Origin: Cyanobium sp.
GTDB lineage: Bacteria > Cyanobacteriota > Cyanobacteriia > PCC-6307 > Cyanobiaceae
Direction: 5' to 3'
Length of the DNA stretch: 64,000 nucleotides
Assembly (NCBI GenBank): GCA_046075505.1
Contig: JBJTQH010000133.1
Location: 61,497-125,496, forward strand
This document shows positions 12,285 through 59,831 of the stretch, piece by piece. Below the pieces are notes generated by a model, which saw nothing but the letters and a program-made list of their open reading frames with translations, had not been told where the DNA came from and ran no database searches. The translations under genes and the position numbers were made by a program. Each line of letters starts with the position of its first letter. Within the stretch, counting starts at the first letter, position 1.

Positions 12285-13587
12285 GGCCGCTGGCCACGAT
12301 CGCGCCGCAGCCCCCTGCCGGCGGCTGGGGATGATTGCGGGCCAGCGAAGGAGGCCGCAGGCCGGCCAGCGGCGCTGCCGGCTGCTGGCCCCGGGGATCG
12401 AACAGGATCCAGCGACGGCTGCCGGGCTGCAGCTCCTCCGGCGCGAGACCGAGAAAGGCGGCCGGACCCCAGCACAGGCGCTGCCAGAGCTGATGGGGGG
12501 ACCAGCGGCGGCCCTGCACCAGTTCCTGCCAGAGCGCCGGCAACACCGCGCCGCCGCCATGACCGGCCACCCCGGCCCGTCGTTGCTCCAGGGTGAGCAG
12601 CATCTCCTCGGCATCGAGGGGGCGGTGGTGCACGGCGATCGCGCTGAGCACCCCTCGCTCCAGGGCATCGATCAGGGCTTCGCGATCCCGGGGGCCGCCG
12701 AGGGAAGGCTCGACGCGCCAACCGATGGCGGCCGGATCGAGGCCGCTGCTGTCCGCCACCAGATGCCACCAGCACACGGAAGCGGCCGGGGGTGATTCCT
12801 GGCACTCCAGCTGGGCCACGGCCTCAGCGGTGGAGACATTCATCAGCCGCAGCGCCGCTCCCGGTCGGGCGGCCTGCAGGGCCAGCAGGGAGGCGAGCGG
12901 CAGGGTCTCACTCACCACCGGATCGACCGGCCAACCGGCCCGCAACGCCTCCACCCGCTCACGCACAAAACCCTGCTGGCTGAGGGCCGGATCGCGCGGG
13001 GCCAGCAGCACGGGGCGATCCCCCATTTCCGCCAGCAGCAGCCCCCGCTCCAGCAGCGGCAGCGGCAGCAGGGAGGCACCGGCCGCCAGGCCAACGGCAC
13101 CGGCCCGCAGCAAGGCGTCGTGGTCCGCCAGCCCGTTCTCCGCCTCGCCGCTGCTGAAGCTGCCCCAGAGCAGCAACCGCAACGGCTCCGGCCAACGCAG
13201 ATCGAGCGCCTCGGGATGGTCCCGGCGCCGCTCGGCCCAGGGCAGCAGGGCGACGGTGCCGTAGCCACCAGCCGCCGCCGCCGCCGCCAGGGAGCTCAGG
13301 GTTTCGGCCTGACCGCGGCAGGGATCCTCCAGCACGCTGTGGGGATCGACCAGAGGGGGGGCCAGCCAGCAATGGCGGGCATCGATCACCTGCGTTCCGG
13401 CGGCTGCGGCCGCTGCCAGATCCGGATCGGAACCGGCCAGCAGCGGTGGCTCAGCCCTGCCGGCCGACGCGGCTTCCAGATCGCCGAGACGACCCTCCTC
13501 AATCCAGACATCCGCCTGGCGCGGCGGCTGCTGCGGTCCCACGAGCAGGTGGACACCGCGGAGCAGGGTGCGTCGTGCCGGGGTCAT
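12238..13587 (-). CDS. dihydroorotase-like amidohydrolase with degenerate active-site motifs
   Basis: VIDARHCWLAPPLVDPHSVLEDP..GGYGTVALLP aligns by eye to the type I DHOase N-terminus. See findings for the motif loss. Confidence 0.75.
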   Translation of the reverse strand: MTPARRTLLRGVHLLVGPQQPPRQADVWIEEGRLGDLEAASAGRAEPPLLAGSDPDLAAAAAAGTQVIDARHCWLAPPLVDPHSVLEDPCRGQAETLSSLAAAAAAGGYGTVALLPWAERRRDHPEALDLRWPEPLRLLLWGSFSSGEAENGLADHDALLRAGAVGLAAGASLLPLPLLERGLLLAEMGDRPVLLAPRDPALSQQGFVRERVEALRAGWPVDPVVSETLPLASLLALQAARPGAALRLMNVSTAEAVAQLECQESPPAASVCWWHLVADSSGLDPAAIGWRVEPSLGGPRDREALIDALERGVLSAIAVHHRPLDAEEMLLTLEQRRAGVAGHGGGAVLPALWQELVQGRRWSPHQLWQRLCWGPAAFLGLAPEELQPGSRRWILFDPRGQQPAAPLAGLRPPSLARNHPQPPAGGCGAIVASGLRGAQGWWAPGFPSS

Positions 13588-42630: not shown

Positions 42631-43311
42631 GTGTCCTCGAGCCTGCCGGGTCCGGAACTGCTCGCCAACCTGCGCTGGAACCCCGATGGCCTGATCCCGG
42701 CGGTGGCCCAGGACTGGCTCGATGGGGCGGTGCTGATGGTGGCCTGGATGAACCGAGAGGCGCTGCAGCGCAGCCTGGAGAGCGGCGAGGTGCACTACTG
42801 GAGCCGCTCGAGGCAGGAGCTGTGGCACAAAGGAGCCACCAGCGGCCAGATCCAGATCCTCAAGGGGCTGCGCTTCGACTGCGATGCCGATGTGCTGCTG
42901 CTGAGCATCGAGCAGCTCGGAGGCGGCGCTTGCCACACCGGGGCCCCCAGCTGCTTCTACGAGGAGGGTCCGGGAGTGAGTGCCGGCGGGGCGGACGCGC
43001 TGCCGCCACCGGCCGATATCTGCACGGAGCTGTACCGGGTGATCGAAGACCGGCGCCAGCGACCGGAGGCGGGCAGCTACACCAATCGCCTGCTCGAAGG
43101 GGGCGACAACCGCATTCTCAAGAAAATCGGTGAGGAAGCGGCCGAATTCGTGATGGCCGTCAAGGACGACGATCCGGAGGCGATCGCCGGCGAAGCGGCC
43201 GATCTGCTGTTTCACCTGCAGGTGGCCCTGGCCCACCACGGCGTGCCCTGGCGCGCTGTACAGATGATCCTGGCCGGACGTCGCGGGGCGCCCAGGCGTG
43301 AGGTGAACTGA
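42631..43311 (+). CDS. hisIE: bifunctional phosphoribosyl-AMP cyclohydrolase / phosphoribosyl-ATP pyrophosphatase
   Basis: [43 protein letters not shown] (HisI) followed by [18 protein letters not shown] (HisE). GTG start. Confidence 0.92.
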
Positions 43312-43488
43312 CAGGAGCAGGCCCCTTCTGGTGGATAGCGAAGACAGGCGATCGAAGCCATCACACCCGCTCACCATGGGCGCTTTGCTGCCGCTGCTCT
43401 GAACGCAACCACCGATCACGGCGGAGAAGCGCAAGCCGCTCACATGGCCGGATCAGGGCTAATAAGAAACATCAAGAAATAAAAAAAC

Positions 43489-43516
43489 TTGCCAGGGCAG
43501 AATTCACGGCTAGGCT
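43489..43516 (+). promoter_or_regulatory. sigma70-like promoter candidate for the giant locus
   Basis: TTGCCA-N16-TAGGCT, preceded by the A-rich tract aataagaaacatcaagaaataaaaaaac. Confidence 0.3.
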
Positions 43517-43716
43517 ATTAACAGCCGCCAGAATGAAGCGCCATGGACGTTACGACTCAAAATGCCACCTGATCAGCAATGAAACTCCGCAGAGCCCAGC
43601 AGATCCCGTCTATGTCTGACGTCCGGCCCTCAATGAGGGCACAAAAGCGAGGCGCCACGGAAGATATGCCTCTATGCGTTCTTAGGTATTCCAGTTGTGC
43701 GGCGCTTTGTTGCTGA

Positions 43717-45981
43717 TCAAGAAATGCCAAGCCCTTCTGGGGCAACGGTCATTACTACGCATACACCCAGTCGTCGGCGACCTGGCACACAGCCTATTCC
43801 GAGTCCATAACCACGCTTAATCAACTCGGCACGCAGGGCTATCTAGCGACAATTACATCCGCAGACGAGAATACATTTATCTTAAACTACTCCAACGGCC
43901 GCTACACCTACAGCGACCCTGGCGCAGTACCGTATTACGGAAGCACTAAAATAGCAACCGATGTCTTTCTGGCCGGAAGCGACGAAGAATCACAGGGGAC
44001 AGTAGAAGGCAAATGGACATGGGAAAGCGGTCCCGAAAATGGCTTGATGTTCCGAGATGGTAGTAGCAATACTGCTTATACCAACTGGTCACCGGGGTCA
44101 CCGGATAACAAAAATAACCAGGATTTCCTGGTGATGATCACCTCCGGCGGCTGGGGGGATGTCGACCCCAAGGCAGGAATCGGTGGCTATGTGACGGAAT
44201 GGGGCAAAAGCGGAGCCGAATTCAGCGTAACAAGTTTCACGGGAGCCAATGGATACGAGAATGGCACGGCGCCAAAGATGACGATCAACTTTGATCGCTC
44301 GATCCCCAACGATTACGTGGATATTCGTAATGGCAACGCCCTGATCGACATCCCGATCAGCTTCGGCGGCACCGCCGTCATGGGCCAGGACTATGACCTG
44401 ACCGTCAGCGGCGGCAGCTACCAGGGAGGACGGCTCTATGTTCGCAACACGGCGTCGGTGACCCTGACTTTCACGCCACGCAACAACAGCACCTGGCAGG
44501 CTCCACGCACGATCACCGCATCCTTGGGGGCAGACGGCAGCGAAAACATCTATAGCCTCAACGCCAGCAGCGACCAGGTGTGGTTGTTTGACGACGAACC
44601 CCAGCTCAGCCTTGGCCAGGGCGCTTACAAATTCGTCCGCGCCCCCTACACCTACACCACAAGCACCAACACCCTGCCTGCCAGCAACAGCGACTTCAAT
44701 ACCAATGCTGATGTGTTGCTGTTTGATGCCGATGGCATCAATGAATCAGATGCCGTCTTCCGCGGGCAGGGGCTCAACGACGGCTTCGCAGTTCGATGGG
44801 AAACTTACATCCGCATCCCAGAGACGGGAGACTATGTCTTCCGCACCACCACAGACGATGGAGCGAGACTGACCGTCAGAGACAACAATAGCAGTGGCCT
44901 TCACCGGGCAGGATTCGAGCATTGGACGCTCAATTCAGCCACGACTCATAGCACCGGTAAAATTAATCTTACCAAGGGAAATGTTGTCTGGTTGCAGTTT
45001 GACTATTTTGAAAATACCGGTGCGGCCTCCGCGCAACTCACCTGGGATCGCCCCAATGGAAGCAGCGGTACGATCAACAACGAAGTGGTGCCGGCCAGCG
45101 CCATGTTCCTCTCAGAATCCCTGGCGCAGGGGGTGAACCGCAGCGAAACCAGCAGCAATGCAACCAGCCTCGGTTTTCAGCTGTTTGCCAACAAGAGCAC
45201 CAGCAGTGTGACCAATGTTCAACTGACAGCCACGTCAGAAGCCTCCAACTCCACATCCAATACCACGCTTGCTCAACGGCAGACAGACGGCACCAAGGTT
45301 GGCAATGACTATGTGATCAAGGATGGTAGTGAATCAATCAATAGAAGCAGAATTGGCATTAACGGCATCGTCAATGGAGTCGTCCTTGCCCCCTTCGGCG
45401 TGAATGCCAATGGGGCAACAACAAGCCGTGATACCAACACCAGCACCACGCCCTCGCCCGTGAGCGGCGTCCCCCTGCGGATGAATGTCAACCAAGATGA
45501 TCCCTATGTCATCACCTACAACAGCAGTTCATGGAATATTGCCGAGGCAAAGCAGAGCGAAACCTGGACACTGAGCGTCTATGCCAAGGCAGACAGGCCC
45601 ACAAGCGGGCAACTCTTTATTTTTGAAGCCAATGACAGTGGAGCAGCCATAAGGAACTCTGCATCCACGATTCAACTGGGCACGGAGTGGCAGCGGTACA
45701 CATTCAGCTACACGTTTACAGACCCTGCTTCTCGTTATATCCAGGTCAGGCTTGATGGGCCTGATTATGGGGGCAAAGATGCAGTGATATGGTGGGACGG
45801 AGTGCAAGTTGAACGGGCAAACCAGGCGAGCCCATTTACCGCCTCGTCTCAAATAAATCGTTTTGCCACGAAATTCAATCCCCTGGATCTCCACAGCGGT
45901 GGCTTCGGAACCTCTGACTGGAGCCTCGAGCGGGCCTCTGGAGGCCTTCATGCTCTAGGTCATTTAATATCGAGGTGTTGA
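43717..45981 (+). CDS. giant-locus segment A: C-type lectin-like domain, Calx-beta-like repeats, PA14 and a CBM-like jelly roll (no canonical start for the lectin domain)
   Basis: The frame is open from 43717. The ORF track starts at TTG 44044, but the same frame upstream reads FWGNGHYYAYTQSSATWHTAYSES..LATITSADENTFIL..KWTWESGPENG, the N-terminal half of the CTLD that continues as YTNWSPGSPDN..QDFLVM..GGWGDV. PA14: FAVRWETYIRIPETGDYVFRTTTDDGARLTV..QLTWDRP. Confidence 0.8.
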   Translation, partial: SRNAKPFWGNGHYYAYTQSSATWHTAYSESITTLNQLGTQGYLATITSADENTFILNYSNGRYTYSDPGAVPYYGSTKIATDVFLAGSDEESQGTVEGKWTWESGPENGLMFRDGSSNTAYTNWSPGSPDNKNNQDFLVMITSGGWGDVDPKAGIGGYVTEWGKSGAEFSVTSFTGANGYENGTAPKMTINFDRSIPNDYVDIRNGNALIDIPISFGGTAVMGQDYDLTVSGGSYQGGRLYVRNTASVTLTFTPRNNSTWQAPRTITASLGADGSENIYSLNASSDQVWLFDDEPQLSLGQGAYKFVRAPYTYTTSTNTLPASNSDFNTNADVLLFDADGINESDAVFRGQGLNDGFAVRWETYIRIPETGDYVFRTTTDDGARLTVRDNNSSGLHRAGFEHWTLNSATTHSTGKINLTKGNVVWLQFDYFENTGAASAQLTWDRPNGSSGTINNEVVPASAMFLSESLAQGVNRSETSSNATSLGFQLFANKSTSSVTNVQLTATSEASNSTSNTTLAQRQTDGTKVGNDYVIKDGSESINRSRIGINGIVNGVVLAPFGVNANGATTSRDTNTSTTPSPVSGVPLRMNVNQDDPYVITYNSSSWNIAEAKQSETWTLSVYAKADRPTSGQLFIFEANDSGAAIRNSASTIQLGTEWQRYTFSYTFTDPASRYIQVRLDGPDYGGKDAVIWWDGVQVERANQASPFTASSQINRFATKFNPLDLHSGGFGTSDWSLERASGGLHALGHLISRC

Positions 45982-48900
45982 CTGATAGCTACGCAGAAAA
46001 TACCGAGTCGGTCACACTGACGCTCGGCAATGGAAGTGGCTATGGCATCTCCAACGGCAGCCAAACCCTCACCATCGGCGATGACCCCTTCGTCGTGTCG
46101 CTGGAGAAGGGACAGGATGCCAGTGAAGGGGGAAGCAGCGACGCTGATCTGGGCTGGTTCACGATCACATCCAATAAAGCGGCACCCAGCGGTGGCCTGC
46201 GGATTCGCTACGAAATCTCCGGCGGCACAGCCGAGCGCGGCTCCGATTATCATGCACCCAAGGCAACACTGAGTACCACAAATTTCAATCCAGAAAACAT
46301 TGTTGTATTGCCGAGCAACGCCACCTCGACGCAAATCTATATCTCTGCCATCACCGATGCCATCCGGGAAGGCGACGAGACCGTCACCCTCAAGCTGATT
46401 CCCAATGTTGAAACAGACGACAAAGGATTCAGCTTTCAGCGCTACAGCATCGACAGCAGTAACAGCCAAGCGACCCTGACCATCAACGACAGCACGGCCT
46501 ACAGCCCCAACCTCGTGGTCACGCCTGCTGACCGCACCGGAGTTGCCACCATCCGTGCCCAGTTGCTGAATGGAACGCAGCAGGCCGCTTTCGATGTACG
46601 CCTCACCAGCCAGCCCCAGGCGGCGGTGACGATCCAGCTCAGCGGCCCCGCCGGCTCCCAGCTCTCCAGCCAGCAGCTCAGCTTCTCCAGCAGCAACTGG
46701 ACCCAGCCCCAACGGATCACCGTCACGAATCTGGCCAGCAACCAGGCCAGCGTGGTGAACCTGAGCAGCAGCAGCAGCGACAGCCGCTACACAGGCCTGA
46801 GCACCAGCCAGCAGATCATTCCCTCCAGCTGGCCCTCGGATCTGCAACTGAACCTCTGGGAGGGGGGCGCTCTGGTCCCCGGTCAGCCGCCGGCCAGTGT
46901 GCAGGCCCTCGACGGTTCCGAAGGCAGCAACGACCGCCTGGGATTTGAGCTGATCCTGGGATCACCGGTGGTGGGCAATCCAATCGAGCTGCTCTATCAA
47001 CTCAGCGGTGGGGCTGGCTTCCTCCTCGATGGCAGCACAGCCGATGCGGTGCATACACCGGAACGGACCTACCTCCCGCTTGTGCTGAACAACAGCAGCA
47101 GCAGCGGCGGCTTTGCCTATGCCGAGTTCAGTGGCCTGAGCACCGTGAGCAACAGCGGCGAGATCAGCGCTGAAGCCTGGGTGCGCCGCGATGCCGTCAC
47201 CACGGCCGCAGGGGTGCTGGAGTTCACAGACAGCAACGGCTTCAACCTGATCAGCCTCGGCTTCCACGAGGCCACCGGCAAGCCGACACTGGAGATCCGC
47301 GATCCTGCCGGCACGCGGCTGCTGCGCCTGATCGCCGAGGGGGAACTGGGACTGCAGGAATGGAACCATCTGGCCTACAGCGTCGATGCCCACGGCCTGG
47401 CCAGTCTTTACGTCGATGGGGAGCTGGCAAAACAGGGCCAGCTGAGCTATGGCTCAGGCCTGAAGATTTCCCTCTATGAGGGCAAGCAGTTTGAATCCCT
47501 GCGCAACACCAGCGCCGCCACCAGCATCGATTTCAACGACAGTGTCGACACGGCCGAGGGAGGGGATGGCGAGACCTTCTCGGTCCGGGCCAGCGGGCAG
47601 ATCCAGGCACGCAGCAACGGCGACAATGCGTTTGCCGTGCTGTCTGATGACGGCGTGCGGGTGAAGGTGAATGGCCTGCTGGTGGTGGATAACTGGACAG
47701 ACCATGGCGCCACATGGAACAGCTTCACCGTTCCCAATCTCGTGGCTGGTGAGTGGTACGACATCGAGATCGAATACTACGAACACACTGGCTATGCGCA
47801 ACTCCAGCTCGCCGATCAACCGAACGGTACGCCGATCACAGCCCTGCGCCATGTGCCGCTCTACACCGGCACACGCAGCCTTAATTCCATCGGCCGCACG
47901 GCTGTGGGCAGCAATGGCACGGGCTATCTGAGCGGAGCTGTGCGCGGCGTGGGCATCTGGAACGCCGCCCGCAGCCAGGACCAGATTCAGGCCTCGATGC
48001 TGGCCGCTGCACCGGCAGGCACCGGTCTGATCAGCGGGCTGCCGCTGAACGGATCCACCGCCAACAGTGTGCAGGGGGGCCCGGCAGCGGTGCTGCGCAG
48101 CGGCTCCACCAACAAAGCCGCCTTTGCCACCACTCCCTTCCATGGTCTTCAGGTCCCTGCGGGAGCCTCCAGCGTCAGTCTGCCCATCGTTCCCATCGAC
48201 GACCTCACGGCCGAAGGCACGGAAGGCCTGAGCCTGACCCTGCTGGACGCCGGCCGCTACAGCCTGGGCGTCGGGGCCGACAGAGCAACAGCCGAGCTCA
48301 GCGACAACGAGAGTGCCGCTGTGCAGTTTCTGACCGACGGCGCCCCGACCAGCTCCGGCACGGACACGACGCCCGATACGGCCTGGAGCAGCAGCGCCCA
48401 GTTCCGCGTGCGTGAAGAAGACGTGGCGGAGGAGAGCATCACCCTGCTCGGCATACGCCTGGGCAGCCAGCCGAGCGCGCCGGTGACCCTGACGCTGGAT
48501 CCGGCCTCCTTCCAGAGCTCCGAGCTGAATGTGTTCAATCCGGCCGATCCAGGCGCGGCATCGGTCGCGCTGCTGTTCAACCCTGACAGCTGGGATCAGG
48601 TGCAGACCCTGCATCTGCAAGGTGTGGATGACAATCGCGACGACGACGACAAGGCGCAGACGCTGCGGTTCAGCGTCGGCAGCAGCGACGCCGTTTATGC
48701 CGGGCTGCAACCCTCGATCTCGGTGCTCACCCTCGACGACGACGCCAGCGAGGCCGATCCGTCGTTGGCCACCGACCAGAGCGCCACGGCGCCGCTGATC
48801 AGCTTGAGCAGCCCCAATCGCACCTCCATCAACGAATCCGGCAACGACAGCGCCACCTTCACGATCAGCCTGCCCCAGGCCGCCAGCGAGGAGACGCTGG

Positions 48901-51900
48901 TGTTCCTCGAGGTGGATCCCCGCTCCAGCCAGGTGGTGGACAGCGACGTCGTGATCACGGCCGGCAGCGGTGTGCAGTCCCTCGCCGGCCTGACGCGGTT
49001 CAAGGCCAACAGCGGCGCTGCCGAAACGAGCAGCCTCGATAGCGATGGCATCGAGGAGAGCAGCACAGCCTTTGCCAATCAAGGCCAGACAGGGGATTTC
49101 AGCAGCACCTGGTCGGGCTATCTCTATATTCCGGAGAATGGCAGTTACAACTTCAGCATCCCTGTGCAGGGAGGGGTCAGGTTCCGCCTCGATAATCAGG
49201 TGCTGATCGATAAGTTGTTTGATACACAGAGCACCTGGAGCACCGGCCCGCTGCAGCTCAACCGCGGCGATTTCCTGGCGATCACCCTCGATTACCAATC
49301 CTTCAACACCAGCGCCCCCAGCGTTGCACTGCAATGGAGCCGGCCCAGCGATGGCGGCACGACCACACGGGAGGAGGTGGTGCCGAGCCAATACCTGAGC
49401 CGCACCGATGGCTTTACATTGTTGATTCCCAAGGGCAGCAGCAGCGGCAGCTTCACAATCGAAGGAGCACCGGACCAGGTGGATGAAAATAATGAAGATC
49501 TGGTGACATCCCTGCTCGAAAGTCACGGGGTTGAAATCGTTGTGAAAAAACAAGTCAGCACCAGCCAGCTGACGGTCACGCTGGCCACCACCGACCGCGA
49601 ATCGATCAATCTGGCCGCAGGCACGGTGCTCACGTTCGGTGAAGATGTCGCCAGCACGAGTGAAGCCAGCGAGGCTCAGAGCAGTGCGATCGCCACATTC
49701 ACGCTCAGCTCTGCTGCCACGGTTCACCGTGATCGCAGCACCACACTGACGGGAGATCTGGTCTGGACAGCCGATGGACAATCCAGTCCCTACAGCAGTT
49801 CCATCGTCGGTCTGGTGGCTGGTCAGGGTAGCGGTCTCTACCAGGTTCCCGATCCCACCGTCATGCTGACCCTGACAGCACCCCTGACGGCCAATGGATC
49901 CACGGGCTATCTCGCCAGCCTGAAACTGGAGGTCACCAACTTGGGCGGCATCACCCTGGCTGCCGGCACCATGCTCACCTATGTGATCGCAGGTAGCGAC
50001 GGCGGAACGGACAGCGAGTTCATCGCCCTGGAACTGACGAACACCCTCACCCTTCAAAGCGGAGAAACACGGAACAACGTTGCGGTGAACCTGCTCGCCA
50101 AGAGCAGCACGCTGGATCCCACAGCGACCGATACCCCGCTGCAGGGTCTGAGCAGTGCCTATGAGATTCCGAACAGCTCTGTGGTGCAGCTGAAGGATGA
50201 CGACACAGCCGGACTGCTGTTCTCCCTGGATGCGGCCGGCACCCAGCCGATCGATGCCAGCCGCGTCAGTCTCAGCGAACAGGGCTCGAGTCTCACCCGC
50301 TACGTGCGGCTGACCAGCCAACCCGCAGACACGGTGACCGTGACTGTGGAAACCACCGATGCCAGCGAGGCGCTGCTGCAGGTGCCGGGCAGCGATGCTG
50401 CATCGGCAGGGGCTCGCGTCGCTCTCACCTTCACGCCCGGCGACTGGCAGAGCGGCCAGGCCTTCACGATCCTGCCCGCCGACGACAGGCTCGTGGATGG
50501 GGCTGTGGATGTGGATCTGCGGGTTCGCAGCACCAGCGGTGACAGCTTCTACGCCATCAATGAAGACGTCTTACCCAGGCTGCCGCTGAAGGTGAAGGAC
50601 AACGACACGGCGAATCTTCTGGTTGAACTGCAGCAGAGCAGCATCAGCAAGGCTGGCAATGGTTTCATCAATCTGAGTCTCACATCGCAGCCCACAGACG
50701 ATGTCATTGTCAGCCTGATTCCCGACGACGAGCAGTTCACGATCAATGACCGCAGCATCGGGCGGGGCGAAACACTGGTGTTCACCCCCGAGAACTGGTC
50801 CACAGTTCAGAGCGTGTCGCTATGGGCGGTGGATGACAACAGCGTCGAAGAGATCAGCTCCAGCCAGCTGCAGATAGGCATCGCCTCCAACGATGCAGCG
50901 TTCAACGCACTCAGCGACACCTCCGTTCGGATCGACATCGTTGACAACGATCCACCCCAGGCTCAGATCGCCCTGGTGAGCGACAGCAGCGAAGATGCAA
51001 GGCCGGGAGGCTTCCAGATTGCCCTCTCGAATCAGGCGCCAAGCTCGGAAGGATCCACTGGGATTCTGGTGAATTATGAGATCACAGCTGTCAGCCTTGA
51101 TGCGACCTCCGTCTTTCCATCCACACCATCAAGCATCGATGAGATTACCCAGTCACCTGGCGCTATCACCGGCCAGGTGCGGATCGCTCCAGGCAAGAGC
51201 AGCAGCGATGTGATTGTGGTGCCGATCGACGATTTCGTGGCGGACAAGGAAAACAAACGCTTCACCGTACAGCTGAAACCCGGTGATGGCTACAGCGTCA
51301 GCAATGACAGCGCCACCAACAGTTCCACGGTCCAGATCATCAATAACGATCAGGCCGGTGTGGTGCTCTTCACCTCCGGTGAAAGGGTACGGGTCAAGGA
51401 ATCTGGCGGTGAGGCCACCTACCAGCTGGCTCTGCTCAGCCAACCGACGGCGGATGTCACAGTCACCATTGGGGAACTGATCCCGAGCGGAGGCAGTCGC
51501 CAACTGGGAAGCAACAGCAGCGCTTATTCCGAAACAAAGACCTTCACCCCCGGCAACTGGTACATCCCACAGCAAATCAGCGTTCAGTCTTACGACGACG
51601 CCAGGATTGAAGATGGCGACGGTGAGAACAAGTTCTCCGGCATCCATGCTGCCCAGTTGAGCTACAGCTTCAGCAGCAGCGACAGAAATTATGATACGGC
51701 CAGCAACAAGGAGAACGCCAGCTACTTCACCAACACACTGCAGCAGACGGTGGACGTGGTCGACTATGAGCTGCCTATTGAAACGGCCAATGCTCTGCAG
51801 TCATCGCTGACCTCGCTGCAGGAGGGTATCGAAAGCCTGTCGCTGCCCATTGTCGGCAGCCTCGATGGCAAAACGGGTGGTGGCCTGCGCAAGTTCATCA

Positions 51901-54900
51901 CCAACCTGGTGGCCAAAGTGCGTGACATCGGCACGCCAACCCCCAGCAAGCTCAGCCAGCTGCTGAGCAAGGAAATCGCCGGAGCTCTGGGGATTCCGGA
52001 AAATGCAGTGACCGTGAGCCTGACGATGCAGGGAACCGAGGCCGTTGTTGTCGGCTTCCAGTTTGCCGATGCGTACGAACTGTTCAGCGTGCCCCTGGCG
52101 GCCGACTTCGGCCTTCCGGGCCTTGGCTTCAAGACCGAAGGCACACTGGACGCCGCTTTCAGCTATGGCGCCGGCCTGGAACTGGTCCTACATCGCAATG
52201 GCGACATCTATCTTAATACCGAATCAGGCAAGACCTATCTCAACGCCAATTTCAACACCAGCCTGTCACCCGACTTCAGGCTGACTGGGGGGCTCGGCTT
52301 TCTGCAGTTGGATGCGCGCAATCAAGCCAGTCCCAATGATGATGTCGTCATCAATGACGAACCGGCCAGCACCGAGCTGAACGCCTCGTTTGATCTCAAT
52401 CTCAACGGTGGCAGTGACGACAAGCTCTCCATCAGCGACCTGACCAGCATCGATCTGGAGGGTGTGTTCCAGTATGCGGTCAATGGCGATGCCGCCATGT
52501 CGTTCGGCGTCACCACCAGTGTCAACGGCTCAGCAGCCATCCCGTCGTTCAGCTTTGATCTCTCCAGCAAGCTGGCTCTCTTTGATTATTCCAATTCAGA
52601 CGAAGCAATCGATTCCAACAATACAAGGCCTATCTATTTTGACAACATCAAACTCGATCTCGGTTCCTTCATCACCAAGATGATGGATTTAATCGTGGAT
52701 GGACTGGACTCGATCCTGAATCCGCTCTATCCAATCGTGGATGCACTCTACAGTGACACCAGGATCTTCGACACGATCGGGATCGCCAACACCATTGACA
52801 CCGATGAAGATGGTGCTGTGTCGGCCATCGACCTGGCCTCCTGGTTTGCCAACTTTTACGCCAAGATCGACGCAGGTCAAGGCGAGCGACTGAAGGCCTC
52901 CATCGATGCCACGATTGAATTCCTGGACATGATCAAGGGCGTCATGGATCTGATCCGTGACCTGAGGGAAATGAGCGAGCAGGGCAACTTTTATGTCGAC
53001 TATGGCAGTTATGAGCTGCAAGAATTCAGTGCCGCTGATGCCTCTGCGACTACAGATGATCAGGATGCTGAAGGCAATTCCAGTCTTATTGATAACAATG
53101 CCGAGAATCTCAGTGATGACACCGCCAGCCAGGCCGCTGAAGGCGGCAGCAGCGAAACAGGAAGCAAGAGCAGTAAGTTCAGTGAAATCATGGCCCAGCT
53201 CGAGGAGCTCGGATTTGTTATCCCACTGATCGATGATCCCAAGAATGCGATCAAGCTGCTGCTCGGACAGGACGTTGATCTGTTCCAATGGACCATGCCC
53301 GGCATGGGTATGGAGTCGGAGATTGAACAGAGCTTCCCGATCTACCCAGGCATCGAAGGCCTGATCGAAGGAGGATTCGGCGTCGATGCCAACATCGGCT
53401 TCGGATTCGACACCTACGGCCTCAATGAGTGGAGGAAGAGCGGCTTCAAAGGGAGCGAAGCCTGGAAGGTGTTCAATGGCTTCTATGTGTCCGACTGGCT
53501 GGACGGCGAGGATGTGCCGGAATTCAGCCTCGACGCCACGATGGGGGCCGGTCTGGGCTTGTCCGCCTTGGTGGTGCGAGCCGACATCACCGGCGGCCTG
53601 GAAGCGGCCGCCAGTTTCGATCTGCTCGATGAGGGAGAGATCGCAGGCCAATCGGATGGCAAGATCCGCGGCACCGAAATCAGCAGCAACATCAGCAACC
53701 CGCTGGATCTGTTTGAGCTGGTTGGCAGTCTTTCAGCCTATCTGAAGTCCAAGGTGCAGGTGGGTATCGACATGGGCTTCTATTCAATCTGGGATACAGT
53801 ATGGAAGGAAACACTCGCCGAAATTCCCCTGTTTGAATTTGGGGTTGGTGGTAGCTACGGCAGCGGCACTGTATCCAACGGGTACATGCAAGGCACCACC
53901 GTGTTCTGGGATAGCAACCGAAATTTCACGCTGGATTCCTATGAACCCAGCAGCGTCACCACTCAGGATTCCCACTACAACCTGCGCATCGAGCATCGCA
54001 GCTTTGATCGCAATCGCAACGCCAGGATCGATCTCGCGGAAGGTCGCCTGATGGCCTTCGGTGGCGTGGATCGCAGCACGGATCTACCGCTGGAGGTGCC
54101 GTTCCTGGCACCCCTCGGAGAGATGATGACGCCCCTCACCACCCTTCATACCCTGGCCCTGGAGGCGGGCTACGACGAGGAGGCCATCTCTGCCTGGATG
54201 GATCAGGCCTTCGAGCTGGATGGCTTCGATTACCTCCATCGGGATCCGGTCCTGGAGCTCAGGCAGCTGGGGTCGGAGTGGTCGACCTCACAGCTCGCCC
54301 CCCTGGCTGCCTATATCGCCCATAGCAAACTGCACTTCGGCTGGGATGTGCTGGTGCATTCGCTCCAACAGTTGCTCTCAGAGCACTATCCGAACGATCT
54401 TGAAACGGAAGTGGAGCTGATCAGCGCTTTCAGCCAGGAGCTGCTGGCCCTTCCGGCCGACAGCCCCATCGATGATCGGCTCGCCAACGCTGCCCTCGGC
54501 ACGATCGCCCGACAATCGCCTGAGCTTGCCGCCGACCTCGCTCCCCTCGCCGCACTGGCGGCGGCTCTGGCGGCCAATGCCAACTGGGATCTCTGCCAGA
54601 AGATGGATGCTCTGTTCAGCTCAGCCCAACAAGGCAACCTCAGCCTCAGCGAGGCTCTGCGATCGATCAACAAGCTCAAGCAGGCTACCTTTGAGCACTA
54701 CCGCGCCAGCACCGACAGAATCAGCGAGGGGCTTTACGCCATCAGTGATCCCACAACACTCAGGCATACCGTTCAACAACGTCTGACCAGCATCTACAGC
54801 CGCTTCGTCAAGGATCAGGCTCTGCAACCTGGCTCCGGCGATCGTGCCGCCCATCGCCTCCAGGTGCTGGCCAGGCCCGAATGGACACTCTCAAGGGGAG

Positions 54901-56150
54901 CCACGCTCACCACGACACCGTTCTCGTCGCTCCACTCCCTTGCCCAGGAGGGAGTGAGATTGAGCGGAAATCAGCTTGACTTCGGATTGCGGCGTCAGCG
55001 ATCCAGCGACAAGACCTCCGAGGCGGATGCGCAGACCAGCACTCGCGTTCTGATGCATCAGGATACCTTTGAGATCCCCAACAGGGAAGACGGCACAGCC
55101 TTGGCTTACTACAGCAAGACCGATCGCAACCCCCGTCCATTCCTTTATACGCCTAACAGCGAAACAGGAGCTCGCTTCTTCGACCTTGGCTCTGATCTGG
55201 GTCCTGTACTGGAACTCAGCCTTCGCGATGGCCAGCGCGGCGATCGTGATCCCCACCCCGATGTGATCGGCGCAACCGGCGCGATGGCGACACTGATGCA
55301 GACGCATCACTTTGTCGAGACAAGCCAGGCCAATGTCTTCGGCATCGCTGCCAGTGACACCAGCCATGCCAAGAACAACCATGCCAGGAACAACCAGGCT
55401 GCAGCCGTTTTTGTCGGAACAAGGATGCTCAGCGCTCCCAGCAGCTCGAACCAGATCGGCTGTCTGGTCCTGCGCCGGCGGGAAACCTGGGATCCCGAAG
55501 CCATCACACTCGGCGACTTGAAGGAGCGGATTCACCTTCTCGGCGGCACAGTGGCAGGCAGCCTGTCTTCCGAATTCGGCCCTGGGATGAAGCTGCGGCG
55601 GGATCTGCAGCTCACCAGCGGACATCAGGTCGTGTTCCTCGAAATCGTGGACAGCAGCCTGGAGGATCTGGGACCCGCCCACGCCTCCCTCGCCAGCCTG
55701 GGAACCCGGATCGTTCCGCTCGAGAGCAGGCGGCCGGCCTCAGAGGATCAGCTGCGGCTCCATTCACCGCAATCGCAGCTGAAGCTCAACCTCAGCCTCA
55801 GCCACGGCGCCCCGGGGCTGGACGGGTTCCTGGCCCGTCAGCAGCATCAGCTGCCGGTGCTCGATTTCAGCGGCCTCGCTGATATGACGATCGAGGGCAG
55901 ACTGCAGCTCAGCGAGGAAGGATCAGGGAAGCGAACAGTGGGCTTCTACGAAGTGCTCGATGCCAGTGGTGCCGTCAGGGATCCACTCACGGGCCGAACC
56001 GTACGACCAGGTGAGGCCGACTACCGGCGCGCCGCCCTGCACGCCGAGAATCTGTTCGCGCCCTTGAGCGGACTGGAAGCGGGCCATCCTCAGAGCTCCA
56101 GCCGCAACGTCTTGATCCAGACCGATGCGATGCTCGCCCCTACGCTGTGA
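45975..56150 (+). CDS. giant-locus segment B: 3391-aa repeat protein (Calx-beta-like and SQP-type beta-sandwich repeats, LamG, two PA14, large unassigned module, DUF4114-like tail)
   Basis: Uninterrupted 10.2-kb ORF. Calx-beta pattern (..GSDY..IREGDETVTLKL..TINDS); LamG (ISAEAWVRR..WNHLAYSVDAHGLASLYVDGE..GVGIWNAARSQDQI); PA14 (FSVRASGQIQ..VLSDDGVRVKVNG..YYEHTGYAQLQL and WSGYLYIPENGSYNFS..GGVRFRLDN..ALQWSRP). Confidence 0.9.
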   Translation: MLTDSYAENTESVTLTLGNGSGYGISNGSQTLTIGDDPFVVSLEKGQDASEGGSSDADLGWFTITSNKAAPSGGLRIRYEISGGTAERGSDYHAPKATLSTTNFNPENIVVLPSNATSTQIYISAITDAIREGDETVTLKLIPNVETDDKGFSFQRYSIDSSNSQATLTINDSTAYSPNLVVTPADRTGVATIRAQLLNGTQQAAFDVRLTSQPQAAVTIQLSGPAGSQLSSQQLSFSSSNWTQPQRITVTNLASNQASVVNLSSSSSDSRYTGLSTSQQIIPSSWPSDLQLNLWEGGALVPGQPPASVQALDGSEGSNDRLGFELILGSPVVGNPIELLYQLSGGAGFLLDGSTADAVHTPERTYLPLVLNNSSSSGGFAYAEFSGLSTVSNSGEISAEAWVRRDAVTTAAGVLEFTDSNGFNLISLGFHEATGKPTLEIRDPAGTRLLRLIAEGELGLQEWNHLAYSVDAHGLASLYVDGELAKQGQLSYGSGLKISLYEGKQFESLRNTSAATSIDFNDSVDTAEGGDGETFSVRASGQIQARSNGDNAFAVLSDDGVRVKVNGLLVVDNWTDHGATWNSFTVPNLVAGEWYDIEIEYYEHTGYAQLQLADQPNGTPITALRHVPLYTGTRSLNSIGRTAVGSNGTGYLSGAVRGVGIWNAARSQDQIQASMLAAAPAGTGLISGLPLNGSTANSVQGGPAAVLRSGSTNKAAFATTPFHGLQVPAGASSVSLPIVPIDDLTAEGTEGLSLTLLDAGRYSLGVGADRATAELSDNESAAVQFLTDGAPTSSGTDTTPDTAWSSSAQFRVREEDVAEESITLLGIRLGSQPSAPVTLTLDPASFQSSELNVFNPADPGAASVALLFNPDSWDQVQTLHLQGVDDNRDDDDKAQTLRFSVGSSDAVYAGLQPSISVLTLDDDASEADPSLATDQSATAPLISLSSPNRTSINESGNDSATFTISLPQAASEETLVFLEVDPRSSQVVDSDVVITAGSGVQSLAGLTRFKANSGAAETSSLDSDGIEESSTAFANQGQTGDFSSTWSGYLYIPENGSYNFSIPVQGGVRFRLDNQVLIDKLFDTQSTWSTGPLQLNRGDFLAITLDYQSFNTSAPSVALQWSRPSDGGTTTREEVVPSQYLSRTDGFTLLIPKGSSSGSFTIEGAPDQVDENNEDLVTSLLESHGVEIVVKKQVSTSQLTVTLATTDRESINLAAGTVLTFGEDVASTSEASEAQSSAIATFTLSSAATVHRDRSTTLTGDLVWTADGQSSPYSSSIVGLVAGQGSGLYQVPDPTVMLTLTAPLTANGSTGYLASLKLEVTNLGGITLAAGTMLTYVIAGSDGGTDSEFIALELTNTLTLQSGETRNNVAVNLLAKSSTLDPTATDTPLQGLSSAYEIPNSSVVQLKDDDTAGLLFSLDAAGTQPIDASRVSLSEQGSSLTRYVRLTSQPADTVTVTVETTDASEALLQVPGSDAASAGARVALTFTPGDWQSGQAFTILPADDRLVDGAVDVDLRVRSTSGDSFYAINEDVLPRLPLKVKDNDTANLLVELQQSSISKAGNGFINLSLTSQPTDDVIVSLIPDDEQFTINDRSIGRGETLVFTPENWSTVQSVSLWAVDDNSVEEISSSQLQIGIASNDAAFNALSDTSVRIDIVDNDPPQAQIALVSDSSEDARPGGFQIALSNQAPSSEGSTGILVNYEITAVSLDATSVFPSTPSSIDEITQSPGAITGQVRIAPGKSSSDVIVVPIDDFVADKENKRFTVQLKPGDGYSVSNDSATNSSTVQIINNDQAGVVLFTSGERVRVKESGGEATYQLALLSQPTADVTVTIGELIPSGGSRQLGSNSSAYSETKTFTPGNWYIPQQISVQSYDDARIEDGDGENKFSGIHAAQLSYSFSSSDRNYDTASNKENASYFTNTLQQTVDVVDYELPIETANALQSSLTSLQEGIESLSLPIVGSLDGKTGGGLRKFITNLVAKVRDIGTPTPSKLSQLLSKEIAGALGIPENAVTVSLTMQGTEAVVVGFQFADAYELFSVPLAADFGLPGLGFKTEGTLDAAFSYGAGLELVLHRNGDIYLNTESGKTYLNANFNTSLSPDFRLTGGLGFLQLDARNQASPNDDVVINDEPASTELNASFDLNLNGGSDDKLSISDLTSIDLEGVFQYAVNGDAAMSFGVTTSVNGSAAIPSFSFDLSSKLALFDYSNSDEAIDSNNTRPIYFDNIKLDLGSFITKMMDLIVDGLDSILNPLYPIVDALYSDTRIFDTIGIANTIDTDEDGAVSAIDLASWFANFYAKIDAGQGERLKASIDATIEFLDMIKGVMDLIRDLREMSEQGNFYVDYGSYELQEFSAADASATTDDQDAEGNSSLIDNNAENLSDDTASQAAEGGSSETGSKSSKFSEIMAQLEELGFVIPLIDDPKNAIKLLLGQDVDLFQWTMPGMGMESEIEQSFPIYPGIEGLIEGGFGVDANIGFGFDTYGLNEWRKSGFKGSEAWKVFNGFYVSDWLDGEDVPEFSLDATMGAGLGLSALVVRADITGGLEAAASFDLLDEGEIAGQSDGKIRGTEISSNISNPLDLFELVGSLSAYLKSKVQVGIDMGFYSIWDTVWKETLAEIPLFEFGVGGSYGSGTVSNGYMQGTTVFWDSNRNFTLDSYEPSSVTTQDSHYNLRIEHRSFDRNRNARIDLAEGRLMAFGGVDRSTDLPLEVPFLAPLGEMMTPLTTLHTLALEAGYDEEAISAWMDQAFELDGFDYLHRDPVLELRQLGSEWSTSQLAPLAAYIAHSKLHFGWDVLVHSLQQLLSEHYPNDLETEVELISAFSQELLALPADSPIDDRLANAALGTIARQSPELAADLAPLAALAAALAANANWDLCQKMDALFSSAQQGNLSLSEALRSINKLKQATFEHYRASTDRISEGLYAISDPTTLRHTVQQRLTSIYSRFVKDQALQPGSGDRAAHRLQVLARPEWTLSRGATLTTTPFSSLHSLAQEGVRLSGNQLDFGLRRQRSSDKTSEADAQTSTRVLMHQDTFEIPNREDGTALAYYSKTDRNPRPFLYTPNSETGARFFDLGSDLGPVLELSLRDGQRGDRDPHPDVIGATGAMATLMQTHHFVETSQANVFGIAASDTSHAKNNHARNNQAAAVFVGTRMLSAPSSSNQIGCLVLRRRETWDPEAITLGDLKERIHLLGGTVAGSLSSEFGPGMKLRRDLQLTSGHQVVFLEIVDSSLEDLGPAHASLASLGTRIVPLESRRPASEDQLRLHSPQSQLKLNLSLSHGAPGLDGFLARQQHQLPVLDFSGLADMTIEGRLQLSEEGSGKRTVGFYEVLDASGAVRDPLTGRTVRPGEADYRRAALHAENLFAPLSGLEAGHPQSSSRNVLIQTDAMLAPTL

Positions 56151-56344
56151 TCGGGACCGGCAAGAACAGCCACACGTACTTTGCGATCCCAGCTGCCAAC
56201 TCCGATCAGATTCAGCATGTCCAGATGCCGAGCCAGAATACGTTTGCCTTTGAGGCCAGCCATGGCGGTGTTGATCGCAACTTTACTGATGTCGTGATGT
56301 CTTTTCAGCCGCTTCGCCTCATCGCTCCAGACCCCACCAGCTGA
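56147..56344 (+). pseudogene. detached C-terminal piece of the giant locus (end of a DUF4114-like domain) in the -1 frame
   Basis: TYFAIPAANSDQIQHVQMPSQNTFAFEASHGGVDRNFTDVVMSF matches the DUF4114 pattern as I recall it (YF.f..aNpDg.dH...lg.NtFgFED..ggD.DFND.v). It continues the domain begun at RTVGFYEVLDASGAVRDPLTGRTVRPGEADYRRAAL in segment B. Confidence 0.65.
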
Positions 56345-56356
56345 CGTCGCCGCGTT

Positions 56357-57094
56357 GTGATGTCCACGGTCATCACCCGCTCGCTTCGCTCGCCTCTCCC
56401 CCTGTGCTTCTTGGCCCGCCCGGCAGAGGTGGTCGCCCCCGAGCTGATCGGCTGCCTGCTGGTGAAGCGCCAGGCGGATGGTGCGTTGCTGTGGGGTGTG
56501 ATCGTGGAAACGGAGGCGTATTCGCAGGAGGAGCCCGCCTGCCACGGCTACCGCCGCCGCACCCCCAGCAACGACACCCTGTTTGGTGAGCCCGGGCGTT
56601 TCTACGTCTCCATGAGCTACGGCATGCACCACTGCGTCAATGTGGTGACCCACCGCTCCGACTGGGCCAATGGCGTGCTGCTGCGGGCCGCCTGGATGCC
56701 TGCGGAACCGGAGCGCACCTGCGGCGGCCCGGCCTTGCTGGCGCGGCGCTTCGGCATCGATCGCCGTCACGACAACCAGCCGCTTCTTCCCGATGGCGGT
56801 CTGTGGCTGGCTCCCCGGCCGCCGGAGCTGGCGGCGTGGCTGACCTACAGCGCCCAGCCGTCACCCCTGGTGCAGAAGGGCCGCATCGGCATCCGCCAGG
56901 CCCAGGAGCTCCCCTGGCGCTGGTATCTGCGCTGCAGTCGCAGCGTCAGCCGTCGCGCTGCCGGGGATCGGCCGCCCCGCGGCGATGGCCTCAAGGCCCT
57001 GCTGGGCGATCGGTGGGATCCGCTCTCCACCCTCCCATCGGCCGGCCATCCCATCGCAGGCCAGTCCGATGAGCTTGGACGCCAGCCCGTCTGA
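56357..57094 (+). CDS. mpg: DNA-3-methyladenine glycosylase (Mpg/AAG family)
   Basis: [61 protein letters not shown]. Confidence 0.88.
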
Positions 57095-58831: not shown

Positions 58832-58997
58832 CGGCCCGGGCCCTGGTCAGGTCAGATGGCTCGGCCAGCCGACCGCCAAGGGCTCCGGACGGTGATCCCC
58901 ATCACCCGGCCCGCGCCCTGCCCACCCTGTTTACACCAACTCTGGGGTCGCGGCTGTCTGCGCCGGCCCCCCGAACACCAGCCCTGGCGCAGCCATG

Positions 58998-59020
58998 AAA
59001 AAAGCCCCGACCACAGGGGC
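58998..59020 (-). terminator. rho-independent terminator (minus strand)
   Basis: The minus strand reads GCCCC-TGTGGTC-GGGGC followed by TTTTTT. Confidence 0.65.
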
Positions 59021-59279
59021 CCGGGCTGGGTGATGGGGACGCCTCAGAGAACCGCCCCGGGGAAGCGCTCACAAGCGGCAGCGGTCCGCCGGAGGGATTG
59101 TCCTGGCTCCCCCTTGACGCAGAACGGTGCAGTCTCAGGAGGAGAGACGGGGACTTCAGGTGGTCCGCTCCGAGCGCGACGACATCGGAGTGCCTCGGCG
59201 TCAGAGGGTGGGATGAGGCGTCGATCTCAGCGATCGCCCTCAGGGACCGCCCTCAGGAATTGCCATCCTTGCGATGGCT

Positions 59280-59477
59280 TCAGAGATCGCCATCCTTGCG
59301 ACGGCTGCCCTTGCCCTCCAGCAGCTCGAGCAGGGCCTCCATCTGAGCCATCACCCCCCGGACCTCACCGGCCTCAGGCAGAAGGCCATCTTCCATCACG
59401 CCCTGATGCATTTCGCGCAGCTCCTGACGGATGTATCGCAGATGGCTCACCACCTGCTCACGTTTGGATTGCGACAT
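59280..59477 (-). CDS. small hypothetical protein (65 aa, helical)
   Basis: ATG-initiated ORF 30 nt downstream of the PCP_red-domain gene, on the same strand. No family recognised. Confidence 0.45.
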   Translation of the reverse strand: MSQSKREQVVSHLRYIRQELREMHQGVMEDGLLPEAGEVRGVMAQMEALLELLEGKGSRRKDGDL

Positions 59478-59758: not shown

Positions 59759-59831
59759 TGGAGAATAGGGGACTCGAACCCCTGACCTCTGCGGTGCGAT
59801 CGCAGCGCTCTACCAGCTGAGCTAATTCCCC
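59759..59831 (-). tRNA. tRNA-Ala (anticodon CGC)
   Basis: Folded by hand. Acceptor GGGGAAT/ATTCTCC with G3:U70; D arm GCTC-AGCTGGTA-GAGC; anticodon arm CTGCG-ATCGCAC-CGCAG; T arm AGGGG-TTCGAGT-CCCCT; discriminator A. 73 nt, CCA not encoded. Confidence 0.93.

Follow-up and report, generated by a model that had tools for sequence, protein, structure and literature searches.

We analysed a window of 64,000 nucleotides (nt) of DNA from Cyanobium sp. (contig JBJTQH010000133.1, positions counted from the first letter of the window), and focused on the stretch at 43312-56356, which lies between the genes hisIE and mpg and is low in G+C content (GC). We observed that this island is one giant gene of about 12.6 kb, with about 4,200 codons once its three frames are joined. 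Our reading, at a probability of about 0.62, is that a giant surface-protein gene occupies a variable slot after hisIE, was brought in by recombination without a self-mobile element, and is now broken. It belongs to a known type of variable genome island, the giant open reading frame (ORF) flexible island, and is not a new mobile element.

The joined gene spans about 43724 to 56344 on a single strand, in three reading frames. A full-length homologue, P0032 (3989 amino acids, aa), was collinear with it over all three frames; the cluster of P0032 includes a protein from the metagenome-assembled genome (MAG) 'Synechococcus sp. Tobar2m-G35'. Residues 7-660 of P0032 aligned with window positions 43723-45657 (56% identity), residues 553-3922 with 45939-56141 (63%), and residues 3922-3987 with 56138-56335 (42%). 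The first frame junction was also bridged by the homologues P0022 and P0023, and the last by P0001-P0005. Apart from one carbohydrate-binding module (CBM) cassette, no block was duplicated or missing in comparison to P0032. The gene truly ends with the TGA at 56342-56344, and the GTG of mpg follows 13 nt later. None of the antisense ORFs within the island gave a meaningful Pfam match. The initial annotation had described a single locus on one strand; this proved right as to one gene, but the gene is damaged and spread over three frames. Its parts are the following.

43312 to 43723, leader of 412 nt, non-coding, GC 0.546, no counterpart in relatives
43705 to 43726, + strand, 5' lesion, where CTT replaces the ATG of P0032, with an in-frame TGA at 43714-43716
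43717 to 45981, + strand, segment 1 (first frame), C-type-lectin-like domain and PA14, collinear with P0032 residues 7-660
about 43.73 to 44.2 kb, + strand, C-type-lectin-like domain (weak Lectin_C match, E = 0.046; PDB lectins)
44731 to 45075, + strand, first PA14 (Pfam, E = 4.5e-16)
45340 to 45938, + strand, CBM4-like cassette of about 600 nt (PDB 1gui, E = 1e-6)
45939 to 56150, + strand, segment 2 (second frame), with the listed ORF at 45975-56150 (3391 aa), corresponding to P0032 residues 553-3922 (63%)
46197 to 46493, + strand, Calx-beta (Pfam)
47106 to 47453, + strand, LamG (Pfam)
47454 to 47810 and about 49035 to 49397, + strand, second and third PA14 (Pfam)
51765 to 56138, + strand, conserved C-terminal module of about 1,450 aa (homologues 50-68% identical)
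56137 to 56140, + strand, frameshift site, a run of four C that is one base short in comparison to all homologues
56138 to 56344, + strand, segment 3 (third frame), decayed DUF4114 tail of 68 codons

In the leader we found no promoter-like site and no Rfam match, and the single terminator-like site is what chance would give.

The domain content was that of a large binding protein. PDB C-type lectins (CD23, SP-A, MBP-C and CEL-I) matched the N-terminus at an E of about 1e-4, on the sugar/Ca loop, and the PDB entry matched by the cassette, 1gui, is the carbohydrate-binding module of laminarinase 16A. Calx-beta/Ig-like spacers are part of the protein, and EF-hand-like loops were assigned by analogy with weak matches in P0032. 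As judged from these domains, the architecture would be that of a calcium-dependent, glycan-binding cell-surface or secreted protein. The N-termini of the window protein (MPKPFWGNGHYY) and of P0032 (MAVTTGNARPFWGNGHYY) were non-hydrophobic by eye, with no visible signal peptide. RTX nonapeptide repeats (Pfam HemolysinCabind) were found in the cargo of relatives but not in the window's protein. No linked ABC, membrane fusion protein or TolC secretion genes were seen among the scanned window genes or in the three loci L081, L163 and L166, which carry homologues.

We compared the composition of the island with the rest of the window, which is overall high-GC picocyanobacterial DNA. The stretch 43312-56356 had a GC of 0.590, against 0.69 ± 0.03 elsewhere, and both flanks were alike in core composition. 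The mean GC of 50 core windows of 1 kb was 0.692 (standard deviation 0.031, minimum 0.607), whereas the 13 island windows of 1 kb gave 0.52-0.64 (Mann-Whitney p = 6e-8 against the core windows). The tetranucleotide distance of the island to the core profile was 2-3 times that of any core window. The drop in GC is real and far beyond chance. It was visible in 100-nt windows from 43400 onward, and the gene stop lies 13 nt before mpg, which is where the initial annotation had placed the two edges. Its hand counts (30/60 at 44041-44100, 26/60 at 52561-52620 and 47/60 at 12301-12360) were exact, and Pfam supported its identification of hisIE and mpg.

We further estimated how the drop divides between amino acids and codons. 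The reference for codon usage and GC was a set of 19 core genes, several of which match NCBIfam end to end (GC 0.687; GC at third codon positions, GC3, 0.843). When the giant protein was re-encoded with core codon usage the GC came to 0.629. The observed value was lower (0.592), so the amino acids alone are not the cause of the drop; about 60% of it is due to amino-acid composition and about 40% to codon choice. At first codon positions the gene had a GC of 0.58, against 0.73 in the core. At synonymous third positions (GC3s) the value was 0.715, against 0.839 ± 0.039, and all the 1-kb chunks of the gene (0.61-0.79) fell under the core mean. A GC3 equal to that of the core, which had been named beforehand as the finding that would reduce the drop to a Ser/Thr/Asn/Asp-rich protein, was thus not observed. 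The gene was also a compositional mosaic: in 600-nt steps its GC3 ranged from 0.54 to 0.87, and it rose from about 0.65 to about 0.79 near 46 kb.

Homologues of the gene showed a similar pattern in their own hosts. The GC3 was 0.77 against flanks of 0.84-0.88 for the intact homologue in L166, 0.80 against 0.90-0.93 for the intact homologue in L163, and 0.50 against 0.80 for the homologue in L081. Since homologues share the deficit, low GC3 would be a trait of the family, and it gives no date for the arrival of the gene here. The description of the island as compositionally foreign therefore stands as to GC3s and needs qualifying as to the rest, as more than half of the drop is amino-acid composition and the GC3 deficit is common to the family.

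The surroundings of the gene were compared with other cyanobacterial genomes. The flanking genes, and the tRNA gene nearest to the island, are as follows.

42631 to 43311, + strand, hisIE, left flank, last gene of the conserved left block (Pfam PRA-CH and PRA-PH)
56357 to 57094, + strand, mpg, right flank, first gene of the conserved right block (Pfam Pur_DNA_glyco)
59759 to 59831, - strand, tRNA-Ala(CGC), nearest tRNA (ARAGORN and Rfam)

We fetched 55 cyanobacterial hisIE loci, of which 44 had at least 3 kb downstream; the best HisIE identity was 81%. The relatives share the left gene order (ABC transporter, zigA-like GTPase, fur, PTPS, hisIE), and homology to the window ended at the hisIE stop, position 43311, in all the hisIE loci, at both protein and nucleotide level. 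Neither the giant gene nor mpg followed hisIE in any of the 44 relatives. Many of them had a GC trough of their own after hisIE, in which large secreted proteins of other kinds were encoded: L007, L008, L009, L047 and L059 had RTX proteins of 880-1594 aa, L004 had an equivalent ORF of 1322 aa at the RTX position together with a TPR (tetratricopeptide repeat) protein, and L001 had a jacalin-lectin protein. In more distant genomes HlyD/AcrB efflux genes stood there. Judged from these loci, the 3' end of hisIE is a variable slot and a recurrent site for large secreted proteins in this clade.

Some details of the cargo in relatives may be added. The closest relatives (L004:12583-17091, L007:13837-18340 and L008:12204-17255) shared their cargo after hisIE, which consisted of a conserved 169-aa ORF and then a GC-poor protein of 1320-1502 aa (GC3 0.54-0.61; RTX repeats by Pfam in L007 and L008). 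A conserved 322-aa core gene came next in these three, and is lacking in the window. A Cyanobium MAG (L037:14436-18283) carried 4 kb after hisIE at a GC of 0.40-0.42 (host about 0.70), with two tandem ORFs of 491 aa. The contigs L007, L044 and L061 are titled 'Microcystis elabens FACHB-917', 'Bordetella parapertussis' MAG and 'Chitinophaga pinensis' MAG; their HisIE proteins were 69-81% identical to that of the window, with the same upstream gene, and the organism names on these contigs are probably wrong.

On the right side, the block of the window runs mpg-pyrB-DUF565-tRNA-Ala-DUF2555-psbO-sat, and relatives keep the order mpg-pyrB-DUF565-DUF2555-psbO-sat. Upstream of mpg, 36 relatives had ileS-ycf66-desaturase-gatC-creatininase followed by a variable gap, which came to 0.6-4.6 kb where it was measured. 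We found none of these five upstream genes in the window, and no giant gene before mpg in any of the 36. None of the 44 relatives had genes of the mpg block within 10 kb after hisIE. The absence of the giant gene from both sites, seen in the comparison with relatives that had been proposed for this interval, supports the initial interpretation. In contrast, the picture of an island wedged between hisIE and mpg did not survive, as the pair was not adjacent in any relative. The missing adjacency means that the arrangement is not a simple insertion into an adjacent pair. From the gene orders, hisIE and mpg are not ancestral neighbours: the window joins two otherwise separate syntenic blocks at two variable sites, with the giant gene at the joint.

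A single large deleted block between hisIE and mpg was considered and rejected, as in relatives the 10-kb stretches that follow hisIE and precede mpg had only ABC-ATPase paralogues in common. No remnants of the giant gene's tail were found upstream of mpg in relatives. The space before mpg was variable in L083, L091, L094, L097, L117, L139, L142 and L149, where the DNA just upstream was often GC-poor (0.47-0.59). This gap is a second, small variable site, which coincides with the right breakpoint of the window. The start of mpg is 13 nt from the giant gene stop, and relatives have at least 570 nt of upstream spacer. With this spacing, mpg must be transcribed in this genome from within, or along with, the 3' end of the giant gene. 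Between the DUF565 gene and tRNA-Ala we also observed an inverted repeat, whose 23-nt arms are 91% complementary and separated by 98 nt, and two 27-nt units in tandem, at 58896-59039 and 59253-59306.

We looked for marks of mobility. No integrase, transposase or recombinase was found on either strand of the island by Pfam, with antisense ORFs included, and the search for flanking direct repeats (att sites) gave only short, chance-level matches. No tRNA or tmRNA was present at the island border. The tRNA-Ala, the only tRNA or Rfam match in the 64 kb, lies 3.4 kb to the right of the island, beyond mpg, pyrB and the DUF565 gene, which are syntenic in relatives. The earlier statement that such marks are lacking is borne out on every count.

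The copy in the window was damaged in three places. At the 5' end, where the start codon of P0032 is replaced, the sole ATG nearby (43724) is out of frame; the earliest in-frame start is the TTG at 44044, and its use would remove two-thirds of the lectin domain. The CBM4-like cassette is absent from P0032 and stands at a different position in P0034, and no other part of the gene had a GC3 as low (0.54). The cassette's 3' end joins out of frame, and segment 1 consequently stops at 45981. Lastly, a 1-nt deletion in the C run at 56137-56140 puts the last 68 codons into another frame; P0001-P0005 and P0032 read straight through both frames at 56138-56141.

The tail beyond this deletion has diverged. 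It was 41-49% identical to homologues whose bodies are 59-61% identical, whereas in intact pairs the tail is usually conserved at least as well as the body. After the frame was repaired, DUF4114 (PF13448) scored 22 bits, under the cut-off of 27 bits, against 36 bits in P0032, and conserved acidic residues of the motif are replaced in the window tail. By these scores, DUF4114 is present but decayed in the window copy.

We also checked whether frame breaks are a feature of the window as a whole. The check relied on end-to-end NCBIfam matches, since in 70%-GC DNA the noise was too great for a GC-frame plot or a self-trained codon model to reveal frameshifts. ProS, PurA, Tal (transaldolase), PyrB, Sat and Xth gave end-to-end NCBIfam equivalog matches, no sign of a split was seen in the other core ORFs scanned, and the block at 36-43 kb aligned to relatives without frame breaks. 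Since the core genes are intact, the lesions are real and specific to the giant gene. Sequencing error as the source of the frame breaks was ruled out by the intact core genes, the cassette junction and the diverged tail.

Homologues were found at other loci. The intact gene is placed between speE and speB in L166 and immediately upstream of arfB-speE-speB-gcvT in L163, and in L081 the gene stands before photolyase/NUDIX, at a GC of 0.48 against flanks of 0.66. A 2-oxoglutarate (2OG)-Fe(II) oxygenase and a TPR gene precede the gene in L166, and also in L081, where the oxygenase is 83% identical to that of L166. These two genes (L166:7572-9666 and L081:713-1556) directly precede the giant gene in both the picocyanobacterial loci with a visible upstream side. 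The oxygenase, the TPR gene and the giant gene may form a conserved three-gene cassette, in which the giant protein would perhaps be hydroxylated. Neither partner gene, nor a remnant of either, was found in the window. With the partner genes and the start codon lost, the full-length protein is most likely no longer made by this copy.

The first 760 residues of the C-terminal module were used for a neighbour-joining tree, in which the window copy formed a long branch with the L163/Tobar2m group as its sister (71-75% identity). Between that group and a second cyanobacterial group sat a clade with the label Planctomycetes/Pirellulales; this placement rests on MAG labels, of which three independent ones agree, and this is not proof. 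The tree and the scattered loci indicate that the family moves among aquatic bacteria and lands at different loci, and that the window copy most likely came from another picocyanobacterium.

The C-terminal module itself was searched with the C-terminal 1461 aa of the 3391-aa ORF as query. It matched 1192 cluster representatives, 191 of them at E ≤ 1e-30, and nearly all the matches lay within proteins of 1,000-7,000 aa. No sequence match was obtained in Pfam, NCBIfam or PDB. Two AlphaFold2 models, of low to medium confidence (pLDDT 54 and 62), suggested a long-stranded beta region and a helical bundle, and Foldseek gave no significant match of these models in PDB. Foldseek matches to an outer-membrane beta-barrel, a pore-former and helical repeats were discarded as meaningless (E > 0.02, TM < 0.15). 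A bolder and doubtful proposal is that giant glycan-binding surface proteins in picocyanobacteria and Planctomycetes share the module as a so far undescribed unit for anchoring, secretion or effector function, maybe working with the 2OG-Fe(II) oxygenase and TPR partner, and that, in addition, the 3' end of hisIE is a dedicated hot spot for swapping such proteins in Cyanobium without mobile-element machinery.

The course of events that we propose is as follows. Recombination would have brought the gene in, or swapped it in, from the pool of picocyanobacterial genes, perhaps following natural uptake or transduction, in the way that has been put forward for replacement flexible islands (PMC4033161). 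That event or a later one would have joined the hisIE block to the mpg block. The copy would then have lost its start codon, taken in an out-of-frame cassette and lost its tail by the 1-nt deletion, after which the tail diverged. While intact, such an exposed surface protein may have served to diversify the cell surface against grazers and phages, or in adhesion or motility, as published work on giant ORFs and replacement islands would suggest.

Several observations weigh against this reading. Relatives do not share the right flank of the slot, and the behaviour of a strict 'replacement island' is therefore unsupported. We found neither a donor nor a nearly identical copy, and full-length identity reached 63% at best. 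Secretion and surface location are read solely from domain content. Segment 2 is open over 3391 codons, though a stop would result from 2.6% of point substitutions; a part of the gene may still be used or under selection, or the body may have been inactivated only recently, which is at odds with the decayed tail. The last points are compositional, and they lead to the explanation of a native gene, inherited vertically and only relocated by rearrangement, with no horizontal gene transfer, whose low GC would come from its Ser/Thr/Asn/Asp-rich composition and from weak codon selection or AT-biased decay of a long gene that is rarely expressed or dead. It is in keeping with this that amino-acid composition makes up about 60% of the drop, and that the same lack of about 0.1 in GC3 (0.77-0.80 against 0.87-0.93) is seen in the intact homologues of L163 and L166, whose hosts are also high in GC, so that a low GC3 may belong to the family as such instead of marking a recent transfer. 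The window copy also groups with picocyanobacterial copies in the module tree, and an identity of 60-75% is conceivable for a fast-evolving surface protein. We nevertheless regard a native gene as unlikely: the gene is absent near hisIE (44 relatives) and near mpg (36 relatives), its homologues stand at unrelated loci, the GC3 of the L081 copy (0.50 against 0.80) is far too low for a native gene, the Planctomycetes-labelled clade is nested between two cyanobacterial clades, and GC3 varies from 0.54 to 0.87 within the gene.

The frame breaks and the junction could also be explained without the gene having been transferred and then broken. Two regions or strains, each with a member of the family, might have been joined inside the giant gene during assembly, and such a chimera would produce both the hisIE-mpg adjacency, which no relative has, and the internal frame break. 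The break at about 45.94 kb falls on a domain junction, GC3 steps up near 46 kb, and giant repetitive genes are known trouble spots of assembly, gaps having been reported in swmB (PMC7522525). This explanation is very unlikely, since the gene is collinear end to end with intact P0032 except for the CBM cassette, the two flanks have the same core composition, and neither the 5' lesion nor the deletion in the C run, with the decayed tail behind it, depends on a join. Least probable of all is a functional split gene, whose lesions would be natural variants and whose segments would be translated separately (segment 2, e.g., with the GTG at 45975 as its start) or linked through programmed frameshifting. 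The uninterrupted 3391-codon ORF and the 1-nt shift within a short C run fit this, as does the L081 homologue, which is also called as several consecutive ORFs; that sequence, however, comes from a polished long-read assembly, and its splits may be errors. Moreover, segment 1 has no in-frame start before the TTG at 44044, conserved DUF4114 residues are gone from the tail after the shift, whose score is under the Pfam threshold, and intact single-ORF homologues exist.

With this locus, the pattern of giant ORFs and flexible islands, known chiefly from marine Synechococcus, is extended to a Cyanobium-type genome of fresh water. The locus also shows how such a gene dies, with a lost start, a cassette out of frame and a 1-nt deletion that removes the tail. 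A caution of method follows as well: a striking GC trough can owe more than half of its depth to the amino acids encoded, and a deficit in GC3 can belong to the family without dating a transfer. The hisIE hot spot, the large module and the 2OG-oxygenase/TPR partners are more interesting leads than the island itself, and the uncharacterised module with these partners is relevant to cyanobacterial cell surfaces, grazing and phage resistance.

When we set the island beside known systems, it resembled tRNA-targeted integrative islands and elements in being a compositionally deviant, foreign-looking block beside core genes. It differed from them in that integrase, direct repeats and a border tRNA are lacking and the whole block is one cargo gene. 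The protein is comparable to giant type-1-secreted adhesins (of the LapA, BapA, SiiE and ice-binding-adhesin type) and to the RTX proteins of relatives: it is very large, has no visible signal peptide, and carries Ig-like/Calx-beta spacers, lectin-type ligand-binding domains (PA14, CBM) and calcium-binding motifs. Unlike these, it has no RTX repeats by Pfam, no type 1 secretion genes were seen adjacent to it, and its 1,450-aa C-terminal module and DUF4114 tail are not part of described type-1-secreted adhesins.

Giant-protein clusters have been counted among the replacement flexible genomic islands, whose boundaries are without clear hallmarks of illegitimate recombination (PMC4033161). The present island differs from those of Lopez-Perez et al. 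2014 (PMC4033161) in that only its left flank is conserved and not both, and in that the comparison here was between species (HisIE 81% or less) and not between clonal frames of one species. Like them, the hisIE 3' slot holds a different, functionally similar cargo in each lineage, and we found no integrase, transposase or signs of illegitimate recombination at the borders.

The nearest likeness is to the giant-ORF islands, as exemplified by swmB of WH8102 (Dufresne et al. 2008, PMC2441476). In marine Synechococcus, such giant ORFs have a deviating tetranucleotide frequency and a patchy occurrence from genome to genome (PMC2441476). The host here is of the freshwater Cyanobium type, the copy is damaged and it lies at a synteny junction, unlike swmB-type giant ORFs. 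Its domain set (lectin, PA14, CBM4, LamG, the uncharacterised module and DUF4114) differs from that of SwmB, beside which it is set without a sequence comparison. In both cases, a single gene of more than 5 kb (12.6 kb here) makes up the island, deviates from its host in tetranucleotides and GC, is patchy among related genomes, and would presumably encode a picocyanobacterial cell-surface protein.

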